DNA of 20,000 bases from positions 58,633 to 78,632 of the forward strand of contig JAXLQJ010000037.1 of assembly GCA_046331705.1 (NCBI GenBank), written 5' to 3'. How positions within the stretch are numbered: position 1 is the first letter of the stretch; every line of letters begins with the position of its first letter. The stretch comes from a bacterium. Lineage in GTDB: Bacteria > JADJOY01. The position numbers and the translations under genes are program-made. The notes beneath the pieces are model-generated. The model was not told the DNA's origin. It made no database searches and saw only the letters and a program-made list of their open reading frames with translations. Of this stretch, positions 7,037-19,469 are shown piece by piece.

Positions 7037-9075
7037 TTCGATGTAGCCGAGCGCCCGCAGCCGTTCCTTCGCCTGATCGTCCGCGCGCAACGCGCCCTCC
7101 CCACCCTCGCCGCCCGCCATCGCGAGCGGCGCCGTCCACTCCGTCAGCCGCGCCGCCAGCGTCGACTCTTCGGCGAGCCCCTTGCCCGCGAGGTTGTGCT
7201 CCTCGCCGGGATCGGTCGCGAGATCGAAGAGCTCGTTCTCGCCGTTCGAGCCGGCGATCCACTTCCAGTGGTCGAGCACCAGCGCCCGCAAGGTGCGGTC
7301 GAAACGGGCGAGCGCCTGCGGCCCGTCGGTGCGTCCCGCGAGCGCGAGCTTCTTCTCGAGCATCTTGAGGACCGCGACGGGGCGATGGTACTCGCTCACG
7401 GCGATGTCCCGGGCCGGCTCACGCCCCGACGCGATCGCCGCCAGATCGCGTGGCGCTCGCTCGCTCGCCGGCGGCTTCCTCTGCCCCACGGCGGCGAGCA
7501 CGGTCGCGAACACGTCGTGAAGCTGCACGATGCCCGGCACACGCGTGCCACGCGCGAAGCCGGGCCCCACGACCAGCAGCGGAATCCGCGTGAGCGTCTC
7601 GTACACGCAGAGCTGGTGATCCATCAGGCGGTGCTCGCCGAGGCTCTCGCCATGATCGGCGGTGATCACCAGCAGCGTGCGGTCCCAGCTGCCGCTGGCG
7701 CGCAGCGCCGCGACGATCTCGCCGACCCGATGATCCACGTACGCGAGCTCGCCGTCGTAGAGACGGCGAATCGAGTCGAGCTCCTCGTCGCCGACGCTGG
7801 TCAGGCCGAGCATGTAGTCGAGAAAGCGATTGCCGTAGATGTCCACGCTGGGCGCGCGCCGCCCCTCGAGAAGACGCGAACGATACGGCTCCGGCGGCTC
7901 GTAGGGCGCGTGCGCCTCGATGAGATTCACGAACAGGAAGTACGGCGACTCGGCTCCGTCGCGCTGGATCCACCAGGTCACCCGCCGCGTGGCGTCGCGC
8001 GCACCCTCGTCCGGCTCGATGTCCGCGAGCCTCGCCAGCGCCCGCGGCAACGAGAGCATCGTCCAGGTCGAGCCCCGCCAGCTCTCGAAAAACCGCTCGA
8101 AACCGCGATCCAGGTTCGAGATCGAGCCGACCATCGCGTTGCCCGACGCGGCCCAGGTTCGATAGCCGAGCGCGCGCATCTGCTCCGCCAGCGTCGCGAA
8201 GCGATCGTCGAGCCAGAAATGCTCGCCCGTGGCCCCGTGCTCGCTGGGATAGAGCCCCGTGAAGAGCGATGCGTGCGAGGGCAACGTCCACGACGACGTC
8301 GAGTAGGCGCGGTCGAAGACCACTCCTTCGCGGCTCAGCTCGTTCAGCACCGGCGTGGTCGGATGCGGATAGCCGTAGAGGCTCATGTGATCGGGGCGCG
8401 CCGTGTCGAGGACGATCACCACGACGTTCGGCAGCACCTTCGAGGCGGGTGCGGGACGCGGCGGCAGCGTGCGATCGACGGGCGGCGCCGGCGCGCCGGG
8501 CTGACCGAGAGCGCGAGCGCGCTCAGCACCAGCGCGCCGGCCAGCGCGCGCCGCAGCCAGCGAGCCCGAAGCCAGCGCAACCAGCGCGGGCGCGTCGCGA
8601 GGTCGCCCAGCTTGAACACGAGTCGGTGAATGCCCCAGCAGAAGATCGCGTACGTCGCGAGCCGCGCCGCCACGGGCACGTGGCGAAACCAATCCGGGTT
8701 CTGCGTGGTCTCGGGGTGCTGGGCCAAGCTGGCGTCGGCCGCCGCCCAGAGCCCGAGCGCCAGCCACGCGACGACGGACGAGAGAACACGCAGCGGCAGC
8801 AGGCTTCCCGACTCCGTCGGTACCCGTCGCGCACGCCACACCAGCGCCAGGACCAACCCCCAGACCATGCCCACCACCAGACCCACGGCGCCGTAGCCGA
8901 GCGCCGCGAGACCGACCGAGTGCGCCGTCACCAAGGTGCCGAGGCCCCCCGCTGCGGCGCCCGCGATTCCCGCCACCCAGCGCGACCCGAGCCACCAGAA
9001 GCCCGCCTCGAGAAGCCCGCCGACGAGGAAGCAGACCGCCACGATCGTCGTGGTGGTCGTGACGATTCGCTTCAT
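7034..9075 (-). pseudogene. Membrane-anchored sulfatase-like (alkaline phosphatase superfamily) protein interrupted by a single frameshift near 8460-8520 (true lesion or sequencing error)
   Basis: Frame A (ATG 9075, ATGA overlap with the upstream stop) encodes several transmembrane helices up to ...LALSVSPA. Frame B encodes ...APAPPVDRTLPPRPAPASKVLPNVVVIVLDTARPDH...WTLPSHASLFTG...HAPY...TADHGE...ELFDLATDPGE...ERLRALGY. The span is 2042 nt, one base short of 681 codons. Confidence 0.8.
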
Positions 9076-10730
9076 CGGCTCACCACCTTCTCGCAGATCA
9101 CACCCGTCTCGGGTCCGAGGTCCGATCGAAAGCGCCCGGGAATCAGGTACGCGGATACGTACGTCCAGCTGCGGCGAACGCGAAAGCCGGAGCGTTCGAG
9201 AAGGCGCAGCAGCTCGGAGCGCGCCATCAGCGACACGTGATGCTCACGGCGGTCGGCCTCGGCGTAGAGCCAGCGCCGCAGCCGGTTCAGGTTGGGCGTG
9301 GTCACGTAGAGCAAGCCGTCGTCGGCGAGCACACGGTGCACGTTCGCGAGCACCCGCTGGGGCTCCACCACGTGCTCGAGGACATCCGTCAACGTCACGA
9401 GATCGAAGGAGCCATCCGGCATCGGAAACGGCTGCTCGATCTCGTGCACCGTGAACGAGATCGAGGGGCTGAGCTCGCGCGCGTGCCGCACCGCCGCGTC
9501 CGAGACGTCCATCCCCTCGACCTCGAAGTGACGGGCGAGTCGCCGCGTCAGGTACCCGTAGCCGCAGCCCACGTCGAGGGCGCGGCCGCCCTGCCGCTCC
9601 GCGAGGATCGGCTCCAGCAAGCGCTCGTAGTAGCTCGCCTCGTCGCGATGGCCACACGGCGAGAAGTGGGAATCCACGCCGTCGAAGTAGCGCTCGGTGT
9701 AGACGGCCTTGTAGTCGACGCCTTGCGAGTGATCCGGCACCGGATCCGGCGCAGCACGCCGAAAGCGCACATCGAGCCCCAACGCGCGCTGGAAGGCAGC
9801 CACCCACGCCGTGCCAGCGCACACGACCAATCCCAGCGGCAACGTCCAGGCCGTGCGCGGCGAGCTCGCCGTCAGCCGATGGAAGGCGAGCCGATGTGCC
9901 ACCAGCAACGCACACGTGAGCCCCACGAGCACGGGATGAGCCGTCGGCAGGCTCGTCTTCACGAGCTCGTGGGCCAAGAGCACGAACGGCCGCACCCCGA
10001 CGACCGTGATCAGCAGCGCAATCCACGTCGCCGCGAGTCGGCCATGAGGAACGAAGCCGTGGTACCGGGCGACGCCTTCCTCGATCCGCTCCGCCCAGCT
10101 GCGCTCGGGGGAATCGAGCCCCGACGCGGCGCTCGCGAGCAGCACCACGCGGCCCGCGCGCTTGAGCGCCCGAACCAACGCCCGTGCCCGCAGCGGATCG
10201 CTGCCGATCTGGGCATGGCCGCCGACGCGCTCGTACGCCTCGCGCTGAACCAACAAGAAATCGTCCCAACCCGCGGCTCGTCGATCGCGTGGCCCCGCGA
10301 ACTCGACGGGATCGACGCCGTCGCCGCTCCACTGCGCGAGGGTCGCCGAGATGCCCTCGCGCCAGGGCGAACGGCTGCGGGCGCCGCCGTGGATCGAGAC
10401 CGCGTGAGCGGAACGCTCGTCCGCCAGCCGGACCGCGGCGGCGATCAAGGCGGGATCGACCGCGACGGCGCGCCGAGTGAACAGGAACCAGCGCTCGCTC
10501 CGTCCCGCGAGCAGCGCGCCCTCGTCGCCGACCCGAACCACGACGCGCGCCGGCTCGCCCGGGTCGGCGGATTCCGGACCGCCGGTGGAATCGCTCGAGC
10601 ACGCCACCACCAGCACGTCGCCCGCGGCGAGCGCTGCCGACGACGGCGCGAGGACGATGCGATTGCGCGCGGCGCGCGCAGCACGCACCGTGAGCATCGA
10701 CGCGAAAACGAGGACGAGCCAGTCGAGCAT
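9072..10730 (-). CDS. Fusion of a degenerate membrane GT2-like domain (HpnB/CrtQ-like) and a C-terminal class I SAM methyltransferase
   Basis: N-terminal TM segment, WFLFT, FLLVQREAYERVGGH and C-terminal TM segments as in membrane GT2s, followed by ALDVGCGYG, FDLVTLTDVLEHV and LYVTTPN. ATG 10730 with GAGGT upstream is preferred to GTG 10868. Confidence 0.7.
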   Translation of the reverse strand: MLDWLVLVFASMLTVRAARAARNRIVLAPSSAALAAGDVLVVACSSDSTGGPESADPGEPARVVVRVGDEGALLAGRSERWFLFTRRAVAVDPALIAAAVRLADERSAHAVSIHGGARSRSPWREGISATLAQWSGDGVDPVEFAGPRDRRAAGWDDFLLVQREAYERVGGHAQIGSDPLRARALVRALKRAGRVVLLASAASGLDSPERSWAERIEEGVARYHGFVPHGRLAATWIALLITVVGVRPFVLLAHELVKTSLPTAHPVLVGLTCALLVAHRLAFHRLTASSPRTAWTLPLGLVVCAGTAWVAAFQRALGLDVRFRRAAPDPVPDHSQGVDYKAVYTERYFDGVDSHFSPCGHRDEASYYERLLEPILAERQGGRALDVGCGYGYLTRRLARHFEVEGMDVSDAAVRHARELSPSISFTVHEIEQPFPMPDGSFDLVTLTDVLEHVVEPQRVLANVHRVLADDGLLYVTTPNLNRLRRWLYAEADRREHHVSLMARSELLRLLERSGFRVRRSWTYVSAYLIPGRFRSDLGPETGVICEKVVSR

Positions 10731-10979
10731 GCGCGGAAGCACCTCACGGCGAGCGATGGACGCAAAGCGGCATCGAGGGAGAAGGGCTGGAGCGAAGACT
10801 GCGCGTCCGAGCGACGGGGCGCGCCCATCCCGCGGCGTCGCACCCATTCGTGCTCGCTGATTTAGCACTCGAACGAAGGCGACGAAACGACGCGCGCAGC
10901 CCGCGATGGACTCGACGTGTCGCCGAGCCCGCGACGCGGCGGCGGGCCGGCCCAGGCGGGGCCGACCACCGTAACCCCC

Positions 10980-11057: not shown

Positions 11058-11495
11058 TCAGTCCACGCGGATGCGGAACGTACGGGTCGCACCACCCTGG
11101 TTCGCCTGCTGGGTGAACGCGATGCCGTTCGAGCTGACCGTCACGAGGCCCACCTGGCACGAACCACCGCCCGGCGCCGTGTTGCTGTCGGCCGTGGTCG
11201 TGTAGGCGCGCTGATTGCGGTTGCGGGGGTTGTCCTCGTCCTGGTGCTTGTTGAGCGCGCAGGTGAGCACGCCGGCGTTCGTCGCCACCGCGCACTGTCC
11301 CGTACCGCCGTTCATCGCGCCGTCGAGCTCGTTCGCGACTTCGCCGTTCAGGGCGACGTAGATGTTGTCGCAGGTCGCGTTCCGCGCCTTCTCACGGGCA
11401 CCGAGAAGCTGCGGGATGGCGATAGCGGCCAAGATGCCGATGATCGCGATCACGACCAGGAGCTCGATCAGGGTAAAGCCCTTGCTATTCCGCAT
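11058..11495 (-). CDS. pilA: Type IVa pilin, probably the major pilin (6-aa leader, 139-aa mature protein)
   Basis: Class III signal [28 protein letters not shown] with G-1/F+1, E5 and P22. It has a purine-rich RBS (AAGGAGAGAGGG), its own sigma-54 promoter and a terminator, as expected of a major pilin. Confidence 0.9.
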
Positions 11496-11582
11496 GTTCC
11501 CTCTCTCCTTTTGCCGCCTGGGCGGCGTTGTGGGTTCCCAGAATCCTCGTTGGTTGGTTCGACAACCAGCACACTGTCGTTG

Positions 11583-11599
11583 AGCAAGGGGGATGCCAG
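11583..11599 (-). promoter_or_regulatory. Sigma-54 (RpoN) -24/-12 promoter of pilA
   Basis: The minus strand reads CTGGCATCCCCCTTGCT against consensus YTGGCACNNNNNTTGCW, with exact GG-N10-GC spacing. Predicted TSS is near 11572. Confidence 0.9.
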
Positions 11600-11845
11600 A
11601 TGGCCGATCTCGCGACCGCGATCACCGCCCCGGCCGAGATCGTCGCGATTCGCCTCCGGCAAATCTGAGCAATCCCGGGACATTATTCGCGAAATCGCAA
11701 CATTCGTGGCGCGCTGCGCCATGCGCGCACGGTGCCCCGTTCTCTCGCCAACCGTGCCGATCGACTGACGATTCACGTCACCGCGAGTGCCCGATCTCGT
11801 CCGCGACCCCGGATCACCGGCCATCTGCACGGGCCCGGGCCGCCG

Positions 11846-13030
11846 TCAGCCGAGAATGGCGAGTGCCTGGTCGAGATCGGCGATCAGGTCGGCGGCGTCC
11901 TCGATACCGATCGAGAACCGGATCAGGTTCTCGCGGATTCCGACCGCCGCGCGCTCCTCGGGAGCCAGCTCGTAGTAGCTCATGAGCGCCGGCTGCTCGA
12001 TCAGCGACTCCACCCCGCCCAGGCTCGGGGCGATGTACGGAATGCGCATGGCGTCGATGAAGCGACTGCCGTCGTCGAGCGTGCCGTCGATCTCGAATGC
12101 GACCACGCCGCCGAAGCCCGTCATCTGCGCCGCGGCGATGGCGTGCTGCGGGTGCGTCTCGAGCCCCGGGTAATGGACCCGAGTCACCCGCGGATGCGCC
12201 GCCAGGAAGCGCGCCACGGCGAGCGCCGACGCGTTCTGGCGCTCGACCCGGATGGCGAGCGTCTTGAGGCCGCGGATGAGCAGGTAGCAGGCGTGGGGAT
12301 CGGGAACCGCTCCCAGGATCGCCTGCAGCTCGCGGACGACGCTCACCAAGCCGTCGCCGCCGACGATCGCGCCCGCCAGCAGATCGTTGTGCCCGCCCAG
12401 GTACTTGGTGGCGCTGTGCACGACCAGGTCCACGCCGAACTCGAGCGGGCGCTGATTCACGGGAGTCGCGAACGTCGAGTCGATGAGCGTCTTGACCTTG
12501 TGCTTGCGCGCCAGCGTCACCAGACGCTCGAGATCGATCACGTGCAGGTAGGGATTGGTGGGCGATTCGCTGACGATCAGACGCGTGGTGGGCCGGATCG
12601 CGCCTTCCAGCGCGTCCCAGTCGTCGGGCTCGACGAGCGTGAACTCGACGCCGAAGCGCGACAGCACCGCGCGACAGAACTGGCGCGTGCGTCTGTAGCA
12701 ATCGCTCGTGAGCACCACGTGCTGACCCTGCGAGAGCAACGCCAGCATCGCGGTGGTGACCGCCGCCATCCCCGACGAGAAGAGCAAGGCGCTCTCGCCG
12801 CCGTCGAGCGCCGCGAGCTTCCGTTCCGCGGCCGCCTGCGTCGGATTGCCGTAGCGCCCGTACTCGGGGCGCTCGATGCGCCCCTCCATGTAGTCGCAGA
12901 GCTCGCCGGTATCGCGAAACGCATACGTGGCGGTCTGCACGATGGGCACGGTCACCCCGTGGCCCGCCTTCACCCGCTCCTCGCCGCCGTGCACCGCGCG
13001 GGTGCCGACACCTCGCCGATCGCTCTCCAT
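11846..13030 (-). CDS. metB: Cystathionine gamma-synthase (Cys/Met metabolism PLP enzyme), plant-type; 394 aa
   Basis: TRAVHGGE, EYGRYGNPT, SSGMAA, ESPTNP, DSTFATP, HSATKYLGGHND (PLP lysine) and SLGGVESL. The real start is ATG 13030, 5 nt after the thrC stop. The ORF-track extension to 13645 overlaps thrC out of frame. Confidence 0.85.
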   Translation of the reverse strand: MESDRRGVGTRAVHGGEERVKAGHGVTVPIVQTATYAFRDTGELCDYMEGRIERPEYGRYGNPTQAAAERKLAALDGGESALLFSSGMAAVTTAMLALLSQGQHVVLTSDCYRRTRQFCRAVLSRFGVEFTLVEPDDWDALEGAIRPTTRLIVSESPTNPYLHVIDLERLVTLARKHKVKTLIDSTFATPVNQRPLEFGVDLVVHSATKYLGGHNDLLAGAIVGGDGLVSVVRELQAILGAVPDPHACYLLIRGLKTLAIRVERQNASALAVARFLAAHPRVTRVHYPGLETHPQHAIAAAQMTGFGGVVAFEIDGTLDDGSRFIDAMRIPYIAPSLGGVESLIEQPALMSYYELAPEERAAVGIRENLIRFSIGIEDAADLIADLDQALAILG

Positions 13031-13035
13031 CGTCG

Positions 13036-14406
13036 TCAGCTCGCCCGCCGCCGGTCGATCTCGCGTCGCAGCGCGTCGCTCACCACCACCGGGTCGGCGG
13101 GAAGCTCGAGCGGAATGTTGCGGTAACGCGGCGCCACGTCCTCGAGCACTCCCTCGTGGTAGCGCACCTTGAACTCGGTGAACTTGAGCCCGTGCGCGGT
13201 GGACACGACCACCACCCGCTCCTTGGGATCGATCACGCCGCGGGCGACGAGCTTCTCGAGCACCCCCAGCGCCACGCCGGTGTGGGGGCAGTTGTACATG
13301 CCGGTCCGATCGGCGCGCGCGGCCGCGTTGGCCAGCTCTTCCTCGGTCGCCACCTCGACGATCCCGTCGAAGCGCTTCAGGACGTCGATGGCCTTGTAGA
13401 CGCTGACCGGATTGCCGATCTGGATCGCGCTCGCCAGCGTCTTGCGCGCCACCACCGGCTCGAAGGACCGGAAACCGTTCTGGAAGCTCAGGTAGAGCGG
13501 GTTCGCGCGCTCGGCCTGAGCCACCACGATGCGCGGCAGCCGATTGATGAGCCCCAGCTCCTTCATCATCAAGAAGCCCTTGCCGAGCGCGGTCACGTTC
13601 CCGAGGTTGCCGCCCGGGATGATGATCGTGTCGGGAACCTCCCAATCGAGCTGCTGCACCATCTCGATGCCGACGGTCTTCTGCCCCTCGATGCGCAGCG
13701 AGTTCATCGAGTTCGCGAGGTAGATCGTCCGATCGCGGGTGACTTCCTTCACCACCCGCATGCAGCCGTCGAAGTCGGTGTCGAGCGAGGCCACGATCGC
13801 GCCGTTGGCGATCGGCTGCACGAGCTGCGCGGTCGACACCTTGCCGCGCGGCAGGAAGACGATGCTCGGGATGCCGGCGGCGGCGCAGTAGGCCGCGAGC
13901 GCGGCCGAGGTGTCACCGGTGGACGCGCACGCCACCGCGTGGATGTCGGTGCCTTCGGAGATGATCTGCTTGACCACCGACACCAGCACCGTCATGCCCA
14001 GGTCCTTGAAGCTGCCGGTGTGGCTGTTGCCGCATTGCTTCACCCACAGATCCGCGACACCGATCTCACGACCGTAGCGCTCCGCCCAGAAGAGATTCGA
14101 GCCGCCCTCGAACATCGACACGATGTTCTCGTCGTCGACGACCGGGCACACCCATTCCTTCTTGCCCCACACGCCGCTGCCGTAGGGCCACGTGGTGCGC
14201 AGGAAGCGATCCTCGAAGAGCCGCATCCAGCGCGCCGCGGCGACCTTCGCCAGCGGCTCGGGATCGTGCACGACCTCGAGCAGCGAGCCGCAGTTCTCGC
14301 AGGTGTAGACGACCTCCTTGAGCGAGTAGCGCGCCCCGCAGCGATTGAAGCATTCGAACCAGGCGTGGTGCGGACTGGTCTCGGCGGATCGATTGGATGC
14401 GGCCAC
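13036..14406 (-). CDS. thrC: Threonine synthase (fold type II PLP enzyme), plant-like subfamily
   Basis: [10 protein letters not shown] (PLP lysine), [27 protein letters not shown] and STAHGLKF, plus an N-terminal CFNRC...CENC cysteine motif. RBS GGAGAGG precedes GTG 14406. Confidence 0.95.
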
Positions 14407-14434
14407 GAATCCTCTCCACGAGCGCGATCGGCGG

Positions 14435-14464
14435 AGTATCCGGAGCCATGCTCCACACCGTCAA
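14435..14464 (-). promoter_or_regulatory. Putative sigma-70 promoter of thrC-metB with a palindrome in the spacer
   Basis: Minus strand TTGACG (14464-14459)-N18-GATACT (14440-14435). The spacer holds GGAGC-N3-GCTCC (14442-14454). Confidence 0.6.
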
Positions 14465-14511
14465 CCGCTCACGGCGCAGGCGCCGCACGCGCCCCGAGCG
14501 CGCGCACGCGC

Positions 14512-15429
14512 TCAGCGAAACGAGTGCGCCCGCGGCCGCTCGCGGCGCGCCGCCGCCGCCACCCGCGGAACGACCTCGGCGGGATCGATGCCCCAGGAGA
14601 CCGGGTCTCCGTCGGGCTCGCCGCGCAACGCCTCCACCCACGGGGCCGCGGGTGCCCACTCCCGCGGATCGGTGGGCCCGAAGATCAGCACCGACGGTGC
14701 GCCGACGGCGGCAGCCAGATGGCTGGCTCCCGAGTCGTTGCCGAGGTAGACGTCCACGCTGGCGGCGAGCTCCGCCAGCTCGGTGAGCGCGGGGTCGCGA
14801 ACGACGTCCGGCTCGGCGCCGAGATCGAGGCCCGCTGCCCGCTCGGCTTCACCGACGACCCAGCTCACCTGCCAGCCCATCTCCCGCATCCGCAGGGCGA
14901 CGGAGCGGAAGCCCGCCAGGCTCCAGCACTTGGTCCTCCCGCCGCTGCCGGGGTGGATCAGCAGCCGCGAGCCGGTGCGTTGGTGCGTCGCGGTCGCCAC
15001 CCAGCTCGCCGTCGCCATCTCGTTCGACACCCCCAGGATCGCCGCCACGTGGACGTGCGCCGAGCGTCCCGCCGGTGGCCGCGCGCTGGCCACGCAGACC
15101 TCCGCAGGGGTGTGCTCGCGGAAGCGCTGGGCGAGCGTGCCATCGGGATCGGCACGCAGCACGACCACCCGAGACGCCCCGCCGAGATCCGCGGGCCACT
15201 CCCTCGCGCTCTCGCCGACCAGCAGCGCACCGAGGGGCCCGTCGAGGTCGAGCCAGCGCTCGATCCCCGCGACCCGGCCAGCGAGCGTGAGCACCGGCCC
15301 GCGCCCCGCAAGCCACACCGAGCCCGGGAGCCGCGTCAGCACTCCCAGCGCCAGCACCACGTCCCCGAGGCTTCCGGGGTGCACGACCAGCGTGGCGCCC
15401 GCGGCCGAGGATGGTGGGTACGCGGTCAC
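14512..15429 (-). CDS. Glycosyltransferase family 9 (ADP-heptose:LPS heptosyltransferase-like), 305 aa
   Basis: HPGSLGDVVL, LIHPGSGGRTKCW, YLGNDSGASHLAAAVG and FGPTDPREWAP. Start GTG 15429 overlaps the IclR stop (GTGA). The ORF-track extension to 16323 is spurious. Confidence 0.88.
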   Translation of the reverse strand: MTAYPPSSAAGATLVVHPGSLGDVVLALGVLTRLPGSVWLAGRGPVLTLAGRVAGIERWLDLDGPLGALLVGESAREWPADLGGASRVVVLRADPDGTLAQRFREHTPAEVCVASARPPAGRSAHVHVAAILGVSNEMATASWVATATHQRTGSRLLIHPGSGGRTKCWSLAGFRSVALRMREMGWQVSWVVGEAERAAGLDLGAEPDVVRDPALTELAELAASVDVYLGNDSGASHLAAAVGAPSVLIFGPTDPREWAPAAPWVEALRGEPDGDPVSWGIDPAEVVPRVAAAARRERPRAHSFR

Positions 15430-16229
15430 GCGCTCGCGGCGCGCTCGATCTCGCAGCCCAGCCGCCCGGAGACCTCGAGCGCCGCGTGCACGACCTTGCT
15501 GGCGATCTCGCGGGTCAGGCGGTCCGCCCCGAGCCGTGTCGCCGGCGCCGAGACGGTGATCGCGCCCACCACGCGGCCGGTGTAGTCGCGAATCGGCGCG
15601 GACACGCAGCGCACACCGTCCTCGTACTCCTCGTCCTCGGTCGCGTAGCCGTGGCGCGAGACCTTCGCGAGCTCCTTGCGGAGCGCGTCGGGATCGGTCA
15701 GCGTGCGCGACGTGAACGAGCGCAACGGCGCACCCAGGACGCGTTCGACCTCCGCATCGGGCTCGAACGCGAGCTGCACCTTCCCGGACGCGGTCGCGTG
15801 CGCGGGCAGATGAACGCCCACTTGCGCCACGACCCGAACCGTCTGACTCGCTTCCACCGCGTCGACGCACACGGCCTGCCCTGCGCGCAGCACCATCAGA
15901 CAGCAGGTCTCGTCGATGTCCCGCGCCAGCTCCGTCATGATCGGCCGCGCCTGACGGACCAGCCCCGTCTGCCGGATGTACGACTGTCCGAGCTCGAGGA
16001 TCTTGATCCCGAGCCGGTAATTCTCGGTCAGCTTGTTCTGCTCGACGTAGCCGCGCGCCTCGAGGGTGGCGAGCAGCCGGAAGACGTTGTTCTTGTGCAG
16101 CTTGAGCTTCCGCGACAGCTCGGTGACGCCGTACTCGGCGACGTCGCCCTTGAACTCCTCGAGCACGTCGAGCGCGTGCGCAACCGACTGGATCAGGTAG
16201 TTCGTCTTGTCGCGACGGTTCTTGGCCAC
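15426..16229 (-). CDS. IclR-family transcriptional regulator
   Basis: N-terminal winged HTH (IQSVAHALDVLE...GVTELSRKLKLHKNNVFRLLATLEARGYVEQ...YRLG), plus PAHATASGKVQLAF and the IclR signature GYATEDEEYEDGVRCVSAPI. Confidence 0.95.
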   Translation of the reverse strand: MAKNRRDKTNYLIQSVAHALDVLEEFKGDVAEYGVTELSRKLKLHKNNVFRLLATLEARGYVEQNKLTENYRLGIKILELGQSYIRQTGLVRQARPIMTELARDIDETCCLMVLRAGQAVCVDAVEASQTVRVVAQVGVHLPAHATASGKVQLAFEPDAEVERVLGAPLRSFTSRTLTDPDALRKELAKVSRHGYATEDEEYEDGVRCVSAPIRDYTGRVVGAITVSAPATRLGADRLTREIASKVVHAALEVSGRLGCEIERAASA

Positions 16230-16434: not shown

Positions 16435-17982
16435 TCACGCGGCCGGCGCTTCCAGACGGCGGCGGATGAGCGACGCCAGCAGCCGGATCTCCGGCATGAA
16501 ACGGTAGAACCGGAGCGCGATCCGCGCGCGCACCAGCGCGCCGTACGCCCGCACCAGCCCGCGCACCGCCACGCCGTCGAGGAGGTATTCGGCGAGGGTG
16601 CGCCCGTCCACGAAGCCGGTGAAGAGCGAGGCGTTGCGCAAGAAGCGCTGGGTTCGGGCATCGAGCCACGGGTAGTCGATGCGGTTCCAGTGGTAGCGAC
16701 TCCACGCCTCCAGCGTCTGCGGCAGCTTCACCCCCAACGCCTCCGCCTTCGGGAAGAGCGGTGTGCCGGGATAGACCGCCAGGAGGTGGAGCTGGGTCAG
16801 GCGCGCTGCGGGATGATCGCGCTTGAGGGCGCGCATCAGATCCAACGTCGCTTGCAGGCGCTCCGGCGTCTCCTCCGGGAACCCGGCCATGAAGCTGTAC
16901 ACCGGCACGATCCCCACACGGGCGAGCTTCCGATTCGCCTCGCGCACGTCGCCGCCGACGATGCGCTTGTTCACCGAGTCCAGGATCTCCGGGCTCGCGG
17001 TCTCGACGCCGACGTAGAGCTGCACGAAGCCCGCGCGCCGCCACAGCGCGAGGTCGGCCGCGTCGATCCGCACCAGGTACTCGAGCAGGCAATTCGCCTT
17101 GAGCCGATACGGGCTGCCACGGGCGATCAATCGTTCGCAGAGCTCGTTGACGCGATGGCGGTTGGCGAAGAAATCGTCGTCACCGACGTAGAACGCCCGC
17201 ACGTCGAACGCCGCCGCGAGATGATCGAGCTCCTCGAGCACCCGCGCCGGGCTCTGGGCGCGCCAACGACGGTTGTTGAACGGCACGTTGTAGCAATACG
17301 AACACGCATGCGGGCACCCGCGGCTGGTGGCGATTCGCAGATCCCAGTCGCCGAGGACCTGGCGCGTGCGGTAGCGACGGAAGTCCACCAGCTCGGTCGA
17401 GAGTCGCGGCAACGCGTCGAGATCGAGGAACGGGCGGTCGGGCGCGTGGCGCACCAGGCCGTGCGCATCGCGTGCGCTCACCCCCGCCACCGTCCATGGC
17501 TCGCGTCCGGCCCCGACCGCGGCCACCAGCTCGAGCGCCGTCGCCTCGCCCTCGCCGCGGACGATCGCGTCCGCGAGCGGATGGGCGAGCGTCTGCTCGG
17601 CCATGAGCGAGGGGTGCACCCCGCCCCAGACGATCGGCGTTCGCGGCGCGAGCGCCCGCGCGGTCTGCGCCGCCGCCAGCGCGCCGCGGATCTGGAACCC
17701 CGTCATCGAGCTCACGCCCACGTACGCGGGCTCGAGCTCGCGTATCGCGCTGGCGAGGGCGTCGAGCGGACTCGGCTCGACGCGCTCGTCCACGATGCGC
17801 ACCCGTACGCCGTGTGCTTCGAGATAACTGCCCACCGACAGGACCGAGAGCGGCAGCGACACCATGCCCTCGCGGTCCCAGCCCGTCCGCGGATAGAAGA
17901 GCACCACGCTCGGCCGCGCCGGCGGCACCGTGGCGGCGCGCGAAGCGATCGCCGGCACCGCGGCGCGAGGCATCGCGGTCAC
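16435..17982 (-). CDS. B12-binding-domain radical SAM protein (class B methyltransferase-like), copy 2
   Basis: N-terminal cobalamin-binding Rossmann domain (VGVSSMTG, WGGVHPSL, GEGE), TSRGCPHACSYCYN (CxxxCxxC), GVETAS and YPGTPLF. Start GTG 17982 overlaps the upstream stop (GTGA); alternative ATG 17973. Confidence 0.9.
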   Translation of the reverse strand: MTAMPRAAVPAIASRAATVPPARPSVVLFYPRTGWDREGMVSLPLSVLSVGSYLEAHGVRVRIVDERVEPSPLDALASAIRELEPAYVGVSSMTGFQIRGALAAAQTARALAPRTPIVWGGVHPSLMAEQTLAHPLADAIVRGEGEATALELVAAVGAGREPWTVAGVSARDAHGLVRHAPDRPFLDLDALPRLSTELVDFRRYRTRQVLGDWDLRIATSRGCPHACSYCYNVPFNNRRWRAQSPARVLEELDHLAAAFDVRAFYVGDDDFFANRHRVNELCERLIARGSPYRLKANCLLEYLVRIDAADLALWRRAGFVQLYVGVETASPEILDSVNKRIVGGDVREANRKLARVGIVPVYSFMAGFPEETPERLQATLDLMRALKRDHPAARLTQLHLLAVYPGTPLFPKAEALGVKLPQTLEAWSRYHWNRIDYPWLDARTQRFLRNASLFTGFVDGRTLAEYLLDGVAVRGLVRAYGALVRARIALRFYRFMPEIRLLASLIRRRLEAPAA

Positions 17983-19469
17983 AGCACGTGCGCCTGGACG
18001 AAGCGCAGCAGCCGCGGCATCACGGCCCAGCGGAAATCGAGCCGCTCGACGCGCCTGCGCATGGCGGGGGCGACCAGGCGCGCGACGAAGCGGAAGAGTC
18101 GCGAGCGCACGAAGAGGTATTCCGGCGACAGCAGCACGGTGGCGTAGTAGAGCCACAAGCGGCGCGCACGCTCGCGCGCGCTCAGCCAGCCGAGCTTCAC
18201 GCCGCCGTAGTTGTAGCTCGCGAACGTGCCCCATTGCTCGAGCGTCGCGGGCGCCACGAATCCCCGCGCCTGCGCCAGCTCGTAGAGCTCGGTGCCCGGA
18301 TAAGGCAGGAACGGCTTGATGTTCCCGATGGTGGCACCGGGATGCTCGACCTCGAGCCGCAGCATCGCGCGGATCGTCGCGGCGAGCTCCTCGTCGGTCT
18401 CGTCGGGAATCCCGCTCATGAAGCTGTAGGTCGGCTCGATCCCGGCGGCGGCGAGGCGCCGATTCACCGCGAACAGGTCGTCGACGCGGTAGTCCTTGCG
18501 AATCGAGTCGAGCACCCGCTGCGAGCCCGACTCGGCGCCCACCAGCACCTCGCGCAAGCCACACGCGCTGAGCACGCGCAGCTCCTCGATCGTCCACTTC
18601 CGCAGGTTCTGCACGTGGGCCCCGAGCACCGACCACTGAAGGCGTGGCAGCGCCGCGTGCAGCGCTTCGGCGATCGCGCGCACGCGCTCCCGGCTCACGA
18701 AGAAGTTGTCGTCGAGAAACTGGACGTGGTCGAGGTCGAGCCTCCTCACCAGCTCGCCGACCTCCTGCGCGACCCGCTCGGCCTCGATCGGCTTCCAGCG
18801 CGCGCCGCCGAAGAACGCGACGTTGTAGCAAAAGGAGCACCGAAAGGGGCACCCCCTGGACGAGAACACGCTGAGCGTGCGCCCGAATCGGATGCGCCGG
18901 ACGTAGCGGCGCAGATCGAGCAGCTCGTAGGGCAAGCGCGGCAGCGCGTCGGCAGCGAGCGCCGCGCGCGGCCCCGCGCTCGCCGGCACGCCGTCGTGTT
19001 TGTGCCAGAGCCCGCGGATGCCCACGGTGTCACCGCCCGCGGCGAGGGTGTCGCAGAGCGCGGCAAAGGTTTCCTCGCCCTCGCCTTGCACGACGAAGTC
19101 GAACGCCGGATGCGCGAGGGTCTCGGCGGGAAGCAGGCTGGGGTGAACACCGCCCGCGACCACGGGTGTGGAGCCGGCGCGGCGCACGCGCTCCGCGACG
19201 TCGATCGCATCCAGGATCTGCTTGCCCGTCATCGTGGTCACGCCGACCACCAGCGGGCGACGTCGCAAGGCCGCGTCGAGACGCCCGCGCCAGTCGCGCT
19301 CGATGCGTTGATCGATGAGCGTGACGCGGTATCGGCCCACCAGCGGTGCCGCCACGGCGAGCAGCCCGGCGGGTACGGTGCCGTCGCCGATGAAACGCCA
19401 ACCGTGCGGATTGACCAGCACGACTTCCGGGCGCGGGTCGGGCAACGTCCGTGAGATGAGCTCAGGCAT
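17979..19469 (-). CDS. B12-binding-domain radical SAM protein (class B methyltransferase-like), copy 1
   Basis: VGVTTMTG, AGGVHPSL, GEGEE, SSRGCPFRCSFCYN, DDNFF, GAESGS and PYPGTELY. Start reassigned to ATG 19469, downstream of the predicted promoter. Confidence 0.9.
   Translation of the reverse strand: MPELISRTLPDPRPEVVLVNPHGWRFIGDGTVPAGLLAVAAPLVGRYRVTLIDQRIERDWRGRLDAALRRRPLVVGVTTMTGKQILDAIDVAERVRRAGSTPVVAGGVHPSLLPAETLAHPAFDFVVQGEGEETFAALCDTLAAGGDTVGIRGLWHKHDGVPASAGPRAALAADALPRLPYELLDLRRYVRRIRFGRTLSVFSSRGCPFRCSFCYNVAFFGGARWKPIEAERVAQEVGELVRRLDLDHVQFLDDNFFVSRERVRAIAEALHAALPRLQWSVLGAHVQNLRKWTIEELRVLSACGLREVLVGAESGSQRVLDSIRKDYRVDDLFAVNRRLAAAGIEPTYSFMSGIPDETDEELAATIRAMLRLEVEHPGATIGNIKPFLPYPGTELYELAQARGFVAPATLEQWGTFASYNYGGVKLGWLSARERARRLWLYYATVLLSPEYLFVRSRLFRFVARLVAPAMRRRVERLDFRWAVMPRLLRFVQAHVL

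Follow-up and report, generated by a model that had tools for sequence, protein, structure and literature searches.

The 20,000-nt stretch analysed here (the window) comes from a sludge bacterium of a small candidate phylum and carries, on its minus strand, a threonine synthase gene (thrC) directly followed by a gene of the Cys/Met PLP enzyme family (metB). The following features were identified:

13036..14406, minus strand: thrC, open reading frame of 456 aa with a GTG start
11846..13030, minus strand: metB, 394 aa with an ATG start, nested in a longer mechanical open reading frame (11846..13645)
13031..13035, minus strand: thrC-metB spacer of 5 nt, between the thrC stop codon (TGA, 13038..13036) and the metB start codon (ATG, 13030..13028)
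14411..14417, minus strand: Shine-Dalgarno-like GGAGAGG, read from the sequence, 4 nt ahead of the thrC GTG
14435..14464, minus strand: sigma-70-like promoter candidate, TTGACG (14464..14459), an 18-nt spacer and GATACT (14440..14435)

The two genes are thus co-oriented and 5 nt apart, as a preliminary description of the locus had reported. The promoter candidate was the sole sigma-70-like match in the 3.3 kb between positions 11500 and 14800 (mean of 0.1 in shuffled sequences), and counting from it gave a predicted thrC leader of about 22 nt. An Rfam scan of the whole window retrieved zero families at gathering score, and a scan of positions 14300..14800 zero families at E<=1, in agreement with the earlier view that the leader is too short for a riboswitch or attenuator. 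RNA-library contigs covered the stretch in part (their gaps carry no meaning, and DNA carry-over was uncontrolled); a 255-nt contig (12947..13201, 0 differences) spanned the thrC/metB junction, and a 200-nt contig (14332..14531, 0 differences) extended over the predicted promoter to take in the end of the gene upstream. Because of this second contig, the candidate is unconfirmed as a start site, and the earlier claim of one predicted promoter holds for the single sigma-70-like site without establishing a one-promoter picture. Transcription of thrC and metB as one unit is a component of the O-phosphohomoserine (OPH) explanation developed below and shares its joint standing, which is somewhat better than even. 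No tie to the pair was found for the neighbouring genes (GT9, IclR, a pilin-like gene, a methyltransferase and a B12 radical-SAM gene).

Relationship of ThrC and MetB to the plant enzymes

ThrC passed the TIGR00260 model (threonine synthase, EC 4.2.3.1) with 216.4 bits, the cut-off being 167.1, and matched PF00291 at 191.8 bits. Arabidopsis thaliana threonine synthase (TS) 1 is a chloroplastic enzyme activated by S-adenosylmethionine (SAM; PDB 1E5X, 2C2B, 2C2G). Among solved structures, 1e5x was the closest to ThrC (582 bits, E 6e-174, query 3-448 on chain 29-477), followed by a next-best structure at 181 bits, and the E. coli-type TS 1vb3 reached 60 bits. This nearly full-length alignment included the N-terminal domain (query 3-85), which is missing from other solved TS. 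The PLP lysine K134, in the shared motif GSFKD, corresponds to K163 of 1e5x and did not vary in any of 19 rows. ThrC was 61-63% identical to algal plastid TS, and the ThrC tree placed the protein in a clade of 34 rows (SH-aLRT 100) together with 9 eukaryote TS, the eukaryotes (99) being sister to the bacterial rows (94). ThrC differs from the Arabidopsis enzyme in having no transit peptide and in carrying the features of the bacterial side of the clade, namely an N-terminal Cys4 motif (C19, C23, C36, C39) present in 23 of the 25 bacterial rows but in none of the 9 from eukaryotes, and nine alignment columns that set ThrC-clade bacteria apart from all 9 eukaryotes (motif pairs GVWG/GVWS, VACAS/VGCAS and NVSALGKGF/NVYAFYKGF).

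MetB aligned to PF01053 along positions 2-380 of the 381-position profile (456.1 bits). Its closest solved structure was the OPH-dependent cystathionine gamma-synthase (CGS) of Nicotiana tabacum (1I41/1QGN; 429 bits, query 9-390), ahead of methionine gamma-lyases (next-best, 328 bits) and of the E. coli CGS 1cs1 (253 bits), and for both ThrC and MetB the close solved structures were plant enzymes only. The motifs EYGRYGNPT, DCYR(K/R)TR and SATK(Y/F)LGGHND are common to MetB and tobacco CGS; the PLP lysine K209 lies in SATKYLGGH (SATKFLGGH in tobacco) and did not vary in any of the 15 rows. MetB was 49-54% identical to CGS from plants, green algae and cryptophytes, and UniRef gives the tobacco enzyme the name 'plant cystathionine gamma-synthase'. 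Unlike the tobacco enzyme, MetB has no N-terminal extension, a regulatory feature confined to plants (the alignment begins at tobacco residue 58, with 8 bacterial residues before it), and has R114 in place of tobacco K165, a position held by R in every one of the 15 rows of alignment A1 and by Q in the three ThrC-MetB fusions that were read.

No NCBIfam equivalog reached its cut-off for MetB, the best being NF006097 (PRK08249; 401.2 bits against 600), and labelling at E<=1e-150 named 2 of 36 representatives. The NF006097 type was rejected for MetB, as a true member (P0469, 749 bits) was 41% identical and fell outside the MetB clade; so was methionine gamma-lyase TIGR01328 (370.9 bits; cut-off 549.7), whose representative P0461 also lay outside. 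In the trees, MetB grouped with the CGS of plants, Micromonas and Hemiselmis, to the exclusion of methionine gamma-lyases and of the PRK08249 type, and the eukaryote CGS group (100/97) was nested among bacterial rows of this clade, the deep internal branches of which are weakly supported (34-62 bootstrap).

Judged by sequence, ThrC is a threonine synthase that falls in one clade with the plastid enzyme, and MetB is a member of the clade of plant CGS. All ten peptide segments quoted in the preliminary description occur in the translations and are identical or near-identical in Arabidopsis TS and tobacco CGS, and its placement of both proteins with the plant rather than the E. coli or Bacillus types was borne out by structure scores and trees. 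Its label 'plant-type' is apt for clade membership and does not extend to rarity, as both protein families are very large and spread across many bacterial phyla, with the plant enzymes forming one branch.

Arrangement of the two genes in other bacteria

Of 80 metB loci from other phyla, 70 of them with enough upstream DNA, 23 had a co-oriented thrC immediately ahead of metB, as did 3 of 4 loci of the organism's own phylum, two of these with a 4-nt overlap. Genomes with this type of MetB also bore this type of ThrC in 37 of 50 cases. Single-chain ThrC-MetB fusions of 797-857 aa made up 62 of the best 120 'longer' matches, under Nitrospira and Nitrospirae names. The ThrC/gamma-synthase unit thus occurs as a tight operon, as an operon with a SAM riboswitch between its two genes, or as a single fused polypeptide, and the pair is common in many little-studied bacterial phyla. 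Neither a bacterial OPH-dependent PF01053 gamma-synthase nor a ThrC-MetB fusion was reported in the literature within reach of the search, which did not extend to subscription papers such as bacterial methionine reviews.

SAM riboswitches were detected directly upstream of metB in 10 of the 50 loci scanned. Five of these were SAM-II elements between thrC and metB in Latescibacterota, and the other five were SAM-I elements ahead of metB, including two loci in which the gene after metB encodes AdoMet synthetase or aspartate kinase. In these other lineages riboswitches mediate SAM control of metB, and such elements upstream of metB orthologs argue for a biosynthetic role of MetB.

A putative O-phosphohomoserine branch point and its alternatives

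The source genome is 95.67% complete in a 118-contig assembly, so that gene absences from it are not proof. A search for metA and metX, as proposed in the preliminary description, found neither: MetX (TIGR01392) gave only a 21-bit match, MetA (TIGR01001) gave no match, and tblastn with three MetX proteins and one MetX-like protein as queries returned nothing. Both were also missing from all 6 genomes of the phylum, one of which is 100% complete. The genome encodes ThrB (238 bits, elsewhere than in the operon), MetH (1607 bits) and two CysK above cut-off. The thrC product is its sole ThrC above cut-off, the next match being a threonine ammonia-lyase. Only two PF01053 paralogs are present, metB and C1:9092-10285, which leaves no MetY/MetZ. 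The best family for the second paralog was NF005455, which it matched at 391 bits (cut-off 504); the structures closest to it (5ijg, 7swh) are named in the PDB table in generic or putative terms only, and a second paralog is present in all 5 phylum relatives as well.

From the gene order, family membership, genome content and thrC-metB links in other bacteria, we infer, with modest confidence, an operon at an OPH branch point, in which ThrC and MetB would both draw on OPH. ThrB, encoded elsewhere, would make OPH. Since the genome has no other ThrC above cut-off, conversion of OPH to threonine is provisionally assigned to ThrC. MetB would let the thiol of cysteine take the place of the phosphate, yielding cystathionine, which would then be cleaved to homocysteine, likeliest by the second Cys/Met PLP paralog, and homocysteine would be methylated to methionine by MetH. 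As the lineage has neither MetA nor MetX, homoserine would not be acylated. MetH could, against this scheme, do nothing but recycle homocysteine.

Given the 5-nt spacer and the lack of a riboswitch, either translation or the properties of the two enzymes would have to decide how OPH is split. SAM activation of ThrC, by analogy with the plant enzyme, is one way of doing so, which we consider rather unlikely. The SAM site of TS is described without naming residues in the available parts of PMC9081730, PMC6957218 and bioRxiv 10.64898/2026.04.17.719144, and those of PMC9796171 and PMC13381585 contain no list of SAM-site residues.

The scheme resembles the E. coli MetA/MetB/MetC and the MetX/MetY routes in that a Cys/Met PLP enzyme performs a gamma-replacement toward homocysteine, and departs from them in the source genome's lack of MetA, MetX and a MetY-like protein and in the low scores against the E. 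coli enzymes given above. The MetM/MetO route relies on a ThrC-like enzyme and a sulfur-carrier protein. According to Hasebe et al. in 2024, it reportedly runs from O-phospho-L-homoserine in Streptomyces. A DUF39 route to homocysteine has also been proposed (PMC4045070). Both resemble the present scheme in yielding bacterial homocysteine from OPH with no need for acyl-homoserine; the source genome differs in that no second ThrC-like (MetM-type) protein and no HcyBio/DUF39 were found in it, and the enzyme here is a PF01053 protein.

The cleavage step leaves room for another reading. Canonical MetC (cystathionine beta-lyase) was not found in the source genome, where the best PatB/MalY match (96 bits) was below cut-off, as was PatB in 5 of 5 other genomes checked. 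Because no canonical MetC was found, MetB might instead convert OPH to homocysteine in one step, as an OPH sulfhydrylase using sulfide or as a bifunctional synthase/lyase, with OPH still shared with ThrC; this we regard as unlikely. A minor OPH sulfhydrylase activity is a property of plant CGS. Among 30 MetB-positive genomes, metB was the sole PF01053 gene in 6, including a closed 4.08-Mb Latescibacterota chromosome (G025) that has neither MetX nor MetA, a situation that direct sulfhydrylation fits better than a two-enzyme route. MetH was not found at E<=1e-50 in this genome or in genome G027. A comparable single enzyme, the putative bifunctional MetB/MetC of Xanthomonadales termed MetBX, has been proposed (PMC13759103), likewise a MetB-like enzyme in genomes where methionine synthesis could not be linked to any MetC-like gene; MetBX, however, is partnered with MetA, uses O-succinylhomoserine and shares 57-60% identity with E. 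coli MetB, whereas the present MetB belongs to the plant-CGS clade in a genome with no MetA. Against a one-step MetB, its nearest characterised relatives are cysteine-using cystathionine synthases, the second PF01053 paralog retained in the source genome and its 5 relatives could be the lyase, and class I/II aminotransferase-like proteins (96-169 bits to PatB) could serve as C-S lyases.

A further reading, in which MetB acts on acyl-homoserine, the acyltransferase being too divergent or in the unassembled part of the incomplete genome, and the link to thrC comes down to common regulation of the aspartate family, appears distinctly improbable. Plant CGS accepts acyl-homoserines in vitro, and many genomes with this MetB do have an acyltransferase: a MetX-grade match occurred in 16 of 50 (and a MetA-like match in 1 of 50), and four operon-bearing Methylomirabilota/Rokubacteria genomes had MetX-like matches of 150-250 bits. 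Among the 50, MetX-grade matches were found in 2 of 20 operon genomes against 14 of 30 without the operon, and in a sample of the phylum Latescibacterota, counting MetX only, in 14 of 84 MetB-positive against 7 of 17 MetB-negative genomes; both contrasts are statistically weak, as relatives are not independent. In the phylum of Plesiocystis pacifica (Myxococcota), MetX or MetA was present in 16 of 37 MetB-positive and 25 of 84 MetB-negative genomes, that is, with no anticorrelation, and both were often missing where this MetB was missing too. The acyl route is opposed by the absence of MetX and MetA from all 6 genomes of the organism's own phylum, by the failure of real MetX proteins to retrieve a homologue, by the lack of any MetX within 4 kb of metB in the 80 loci, and by the ThrC-MetB fusions, which are hard to account for without a common substrate.

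A catabolic or reverse-transsulfuration role for MetB, as a methionine or cystathionine gamma-lyase in a cell that takes up methionine, is very improbable: methionine gamma-lyases are its next-best solved relatives and next NCBIfam families, and the many Myxococcota devoid of MetA, MetX and this MetB suggest that auxotrophy may be common in such bacteria, but the methionine gamma-lyase models score far under cut-off and their representative lies outside the clade, no CBS was found to supply a gamma-lyase, orthologs have SAM riboswitches ahead of them and genes for AdoMet synthetase or aspartate kinase next to them, and metB is in an operon or fusion with thrC.

The OPH branch point thus remains the favoured explanation. 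Of the plant-style split without acylation put forward in the preliminary description, the absence of MetA and MetX and the presence of ThrB and MetH uphold the core, while the lack of MetA/MetX does not track MetB in Myxococcota, and, as no canonical MetC was found, the thiol donor may be cysteine or sulfide.

Meaning for bacterial methionine synthesis

OPH-dependent transsulfuration is treated in textbooks and pathway tools as a plant trait. The sludge bacterium probably makes methionine the plant way; the pathway is known from plants, and its bacterial members are the new part. More broadly, and as a tentative proposal, OPH-based methionine synthesis may be the normal route in many bacterial phyla, with ThrC and the gamma-synthase forming one unit, the plastid enzymes descending from this bacterial pair, and the split, where no riboswitch is present, set at the protein level through an effect of SAM on ThrC or through physical contact of the two enzymes. 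This would hold for the organism's own phylum, for Latescibacterota, Methylomirabilota and Binatia, and in part for Nitrospirota, Myxococcota and Chloroflexota.

If the bacterial clade does use OPH, this would fill the apparent methionine gaps (no MetA or MetX) of many uncultured phyla, and perhaps such gaps in the fusion-bearing Nitrospira-named bacteria too. It would also bear on the origin of the plastid enzymes, as the eukaryote CGS are nested in non-cyanobacterial rows and the eukaryote TS are sister to the bacterial clade, in trees that contain no cyanobacteria. The pair would provide a bacterial, easily expressed model for the threonine/methionine branch point of plants, and the fusions and riboswitch-split operons would represent natural experiments on how two enzymes competing for one substrate are balanced.

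The thrC-metB locus and its transcription

The window has a G+C content of about 70% and carries thrC and metB on its minus strand. No connection with amino-acid synthesis was found for the genes flanking the pair, including the prepilin-like and radical-SAM genes.

Features of the thrC-metB locus, in order of transcription
16435..18852, minus strand: large B12-binding radical-SAM protein, upstream of thrC
15426..16229, minus strand: IclR-type regulator, upstream of thrC
14512..15600, minus strand: family-9 glycosyltransferase, upstream of thrC
14464..14435, minus strand: sigma-70-like site, TTGACG-18-GATACT
13036..14406, minus strand: thrC, 456 aa, GTG start with GGAGAGG ahead of it
11846..13030, minus strand: metB, 394 aa, ATG start
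11058..11495, minus strand: small protein bearing a prepilin N-terminal methylation motif, located 350 nt downstream of metB
9072..10868, minus strand: methyltransferase-domain protein, downstream of metB

The thrC TGA and the metB ATG are separated by 5 nt. The sigma-70-like site was the only one of its kind in 11500..14800 (mean of 0.1 in shuffled sequences), an interval in which no terminator-like sites were found, and no Rfam family reached its gathering score in the window or E ≤ 1 in 14300..14800. The preliminary description of a co-oriented pair with 5-nt spacing, a single predicted promoter and a riboswitch-free leader was correct.

Among contigs from sludge metatranscriptome libraries, one of 255 nt (12947..13201, 0 differences) bridged the thrC/metB junction, and pieces of thrC were present in four runs from two studies. 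A 200-nt RNA-library contig (14332..14531, 0 differences) took in the start of thrC, the predicted promoter and the tail of the upstream glycosyltransferase gene, which hints at read-through from upstream or DNA carry-over in the library. The stretch occurs in activated-sludge, wastewater and digester metagenomes, with 14 runs from 8 studies containing half or more of the sampled words. Long overlapping ORFs were also present on both strands of the window (e.g. 13156..15585, plus strand, 809 aa, antisense to thrC); as these are expected at 70% G+C, they were considered mechanical and not genes.

Relationships and distribution of ThrC and MetB

ThrC scored above the cut-off of the threonine synthase equivalog TIGR00260 (216 bits against 167). 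Compared with all solved structures, it matched Arabidopsis threonine synthase with 582 bits over query residues 3-448, whereas the runner-up enzymes from Mycobacterium, Thermus, Aquifex and Bacillus reached 168-181 bits and aligned only from residue 84-87 onwards; the E. coli-type enzyme scored 60 bits. In a 46-row tree (quick search, without cyanobacterial or land-plant threonine synthases), ThrC fell in a clade with an SH-aLRT of 100 and a long stem (0.87), comprising nine plastid enzymes from eukaryotes (red algae, Closterium and others) together with 25 bacterial sequences, the eukaryotes (99) being sister to the bacterial set (94). Eukaryote sequences for the trees came from a search limited to longer proteins and from a cluster-representative search with name look-up.

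MetB matched PF01053 (Cys/Met metabolism PLP-dependent enzymes) over its full length and no NCBIfam equivalog at cut-off (top NF006097, 401 bits against 600). Among structures, it scored 429 bits with tobacco cystathionine gamma-synthase, 328 with the best methionine gamma-lyase and 253 with E. coli cystathionine gamma-synthase. Trees were built with 71 rows (quick) and with 54 rows (bootstraps), the latter without 17 unnamed outgroup representatives. The plant, Micromonas and Hemiselmis enzymes formed one group (100/97) among the bacterial MetB rows, with a Spirochaetaceae sequence as its nearest neighbour (94/97); a methionine gamma-lyase representative, a bona fide member of PRK08249 and the second PF01053 paralog of the source genome fell outside the clade, whose deep branches were weakly supported (34-62 bootstrap). 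The structure scores and tree positions of both proteins bear out the plant-type ThrC and plant-CGS-like MetB first proposed from sequence segments.

"Plant-type" is nevertheless a mere convenience label, as both families are large and bacterial, with source names from many phyla. Each protein had at least 8000 relatives at E ≤ 1e-60, the best 120 of which showed 69-92% identity for ThrC and 63-100% for MetB. Of the 600 pattern matches listed from one genome per GTDB species, 597 encoded a MetB relative. From these listed matches, 80 metB loci were kept (53-68% identity to MetB), originating from Deltaproteobacteria-labelled MAGs, Methylomirabilota/Rokubacteria, Anaerolineae and other Chloroflexota, Latescibacterota, Binatia, Entotheonella, Myxococcota, Leptospirales, Planctomycetota and others, and including the cultured Bellilinea caldifistulae and Plesiocystis pacifica. 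All six species genomes of the source phylum encoded MetB (82-100% identity) and the second paralog.

Of the 80 loci, 70 had at least 1450 nt of upstream sequence, and 23 had a same-strand thrC directly before metB. Within the source phylum this arrangement was found in three of four loci, the fourth ending at a contig edge, and in two loci the thrC stop and metB start overlapped by 4 nt. Single ThrC-then-MetB chains of 797-857 aa accounted for 62 of the best 120 matches among proteins of at least 491 aa (among P0241-P0319, e.g. P0246, P0276, P0297), some named Nitrospira/Nitrospirae; a short, basic stretch of about 20 residues links the two parts. Across 50 genomes with MetB, 37 had the matching ThrC type (57-70% identity), 8 a distant ThrC only (Bellilinea included) and 5 no match.

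The proposed route to homocysteine

The source genome (95.67% complete, 118 contigs) encoded ThrB (238 bits), MetH (1607 bits) and exactly two PF01053 proteins. Neither homoserine acyltransferase was found: MetX gave only a 21-bit match, MetA none, tblastn with three real MetX and one MetX-like protein gave no match, and both were absent from all six genomes of the phylum, one of them 100% complete. HcyBio/DUF39 and MetE were also not found in the source genome, nor was cystathionine beta-synthase (its model matched three proteins, two of them CysK over cut-off and the third CysM-like) or a second ThrC-like protein (the next match was threonine ammonia-lyase). Gamma-replacement on O-phosphohomoserine (OPH) by MetB is therefore the sole visible homocysteine route, and OPH is the probable substrate of MetB.

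The second paralog (G000:C1:9092-10285, also L003:1501-2694) is a candidate for the missing beta-lyase. It scored 391 bits against a cut-off of 504 for NF005455, a family whose sole name is "cystathionine gamma-synthase family protein", and the PDB table names its nearest structures (5ijg, 7swh) only in generic or putative terms; the best PatB/MalY score in the genome was 96 bits, below cut-off. The combination of OPH as substrate, cysteine as donor and this paralog as lyase appears slightly better than an even bet. A serious rival is that MetB alone converts OPH to homocysteine, through sulfide or as a bifunctional enzyme, because metB was the sole PF01053 gene in 6 of 30 MetB-positive genomes examined and PatB was under cut-off in all five genomes checked. 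Among the former is G025, the closed 4.08-Mb Latescibacterota chromosome of locus L054, in which no MetX/MetA was found; MetH was also not found there (search at E ≤ 1e-50), and PatB stayed below its cut-off.

Elsewhere, co-occurrence with acyltransferases was mixed. MetX-grade proteins (340 bits or more, or a clear fragment) were present in 16 of the 50 MetB genomes, weaker matches (91-248 bits) in 9 and a MetA-like protein in 1; with a thrC-metB operon the MetX-grade share was 2/20, against 14/30 without. In a Latescibacterota-phylum sample (n = 101, MetB in 84; MetX alone searched), MetX accompanied MetB in 14/84 genomes compared to 7/17 lacking MetB, whereas in the phylum of Plesiocystis pacifica (n = 121) the pattern failed (MetX or MetA in 16/37 with MetB and 25/84 without). 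These counts, uncorrected for kinship and drawn from incomplete MAGs, allow OPH use and fall short of proof. The idea of an OPH route without homoserine acylation stands as the best reading for the source genome, with ThrB present and MetA/MetX absent, but may not extend uniformly to other MetB carriers; in MetX-bearing genomes, MetB may use O-acetylhomoserine, or both routes may coexist. Four operon-bearing Methylomirabilota/Rokubacteria genomes (G008, G015, G017, G018) encoded MetX-like proteins of 150-250 bits, three full-length and one partial.

SAM control at the proposed branch point

A SAM riboswitch lay directly before metB in 10 of 50 loci scanned (50 of the 80).

SAM riboswitches upstream of metB
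SAM-II (SAM_alpha, RF00521; 39.7-46.2 bits against a gathering score of 36), in the thrC-metB interval of five Latescibacterota loci: L040:3808-3882, L053:3821-3896, L054:3851-3926, L057:3848-3923, L064:3462-3537
SAM-I (RF00162; 60-91 bits), directly upstream of stand-alone metB in three Anaerolineae, one Myxococcales and one unclassified locus: L025:3744-3868, L047:3734-3870, L072:3658-3851, L049:3544-3663, L035:3634-3740

Given its position inside the operon, the SAM-II element would place metB alone under SAM control. In two SAM-I loci, metB was followed by an archaeal-type AdoMet synthetase (L047) or an aspartate kinase (L072). Such riboswitches and neighbours indicate that the MetB family is methionine-biosynthetic, and argue against MetB being a catabolic lyase.

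As the window has neither riboswitch nor intergenic space, protein-level control or none is left. Published work on Arabidopsis threonine synthase places four SAM molecules at its dimer interface (PMC6957218; bioRxiv 10.64898/2026.04.17.719144). SAM activation of the bacterial ThrC, suggested initially, is unsupported. Most bacterial members of the clade carry an N-terminal Cys4 motif, CxxxC...CxxC (C19, C23, C36, C39; window 14290-14352, minus strand), which is probably a zinc ribbon; 23 of 25 bacterial rows have it, whereas all nine eukaryote rows have lost it. Nine alignment columns separated all eukaryotes from bacteria in this clade, including ThrC positions 81 (G vs S), 159 (A vs G), 272 (S/T vs Y) and 275 (G vs Y), and may mark a candidate plant-specific effector site.

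No description of ThrC-MetB fusions or of operons split by a SAM riboswitch was found in the literature searched, subscription titles lying outside its reach, and most of the value of the finding comes from these two natural arrangements. The metB riboswitches of other lineages show that SAM feedback operates at this branch in bacteria, and the thrC-metB pair adds a new bacterial case to a pathway already known in plants.
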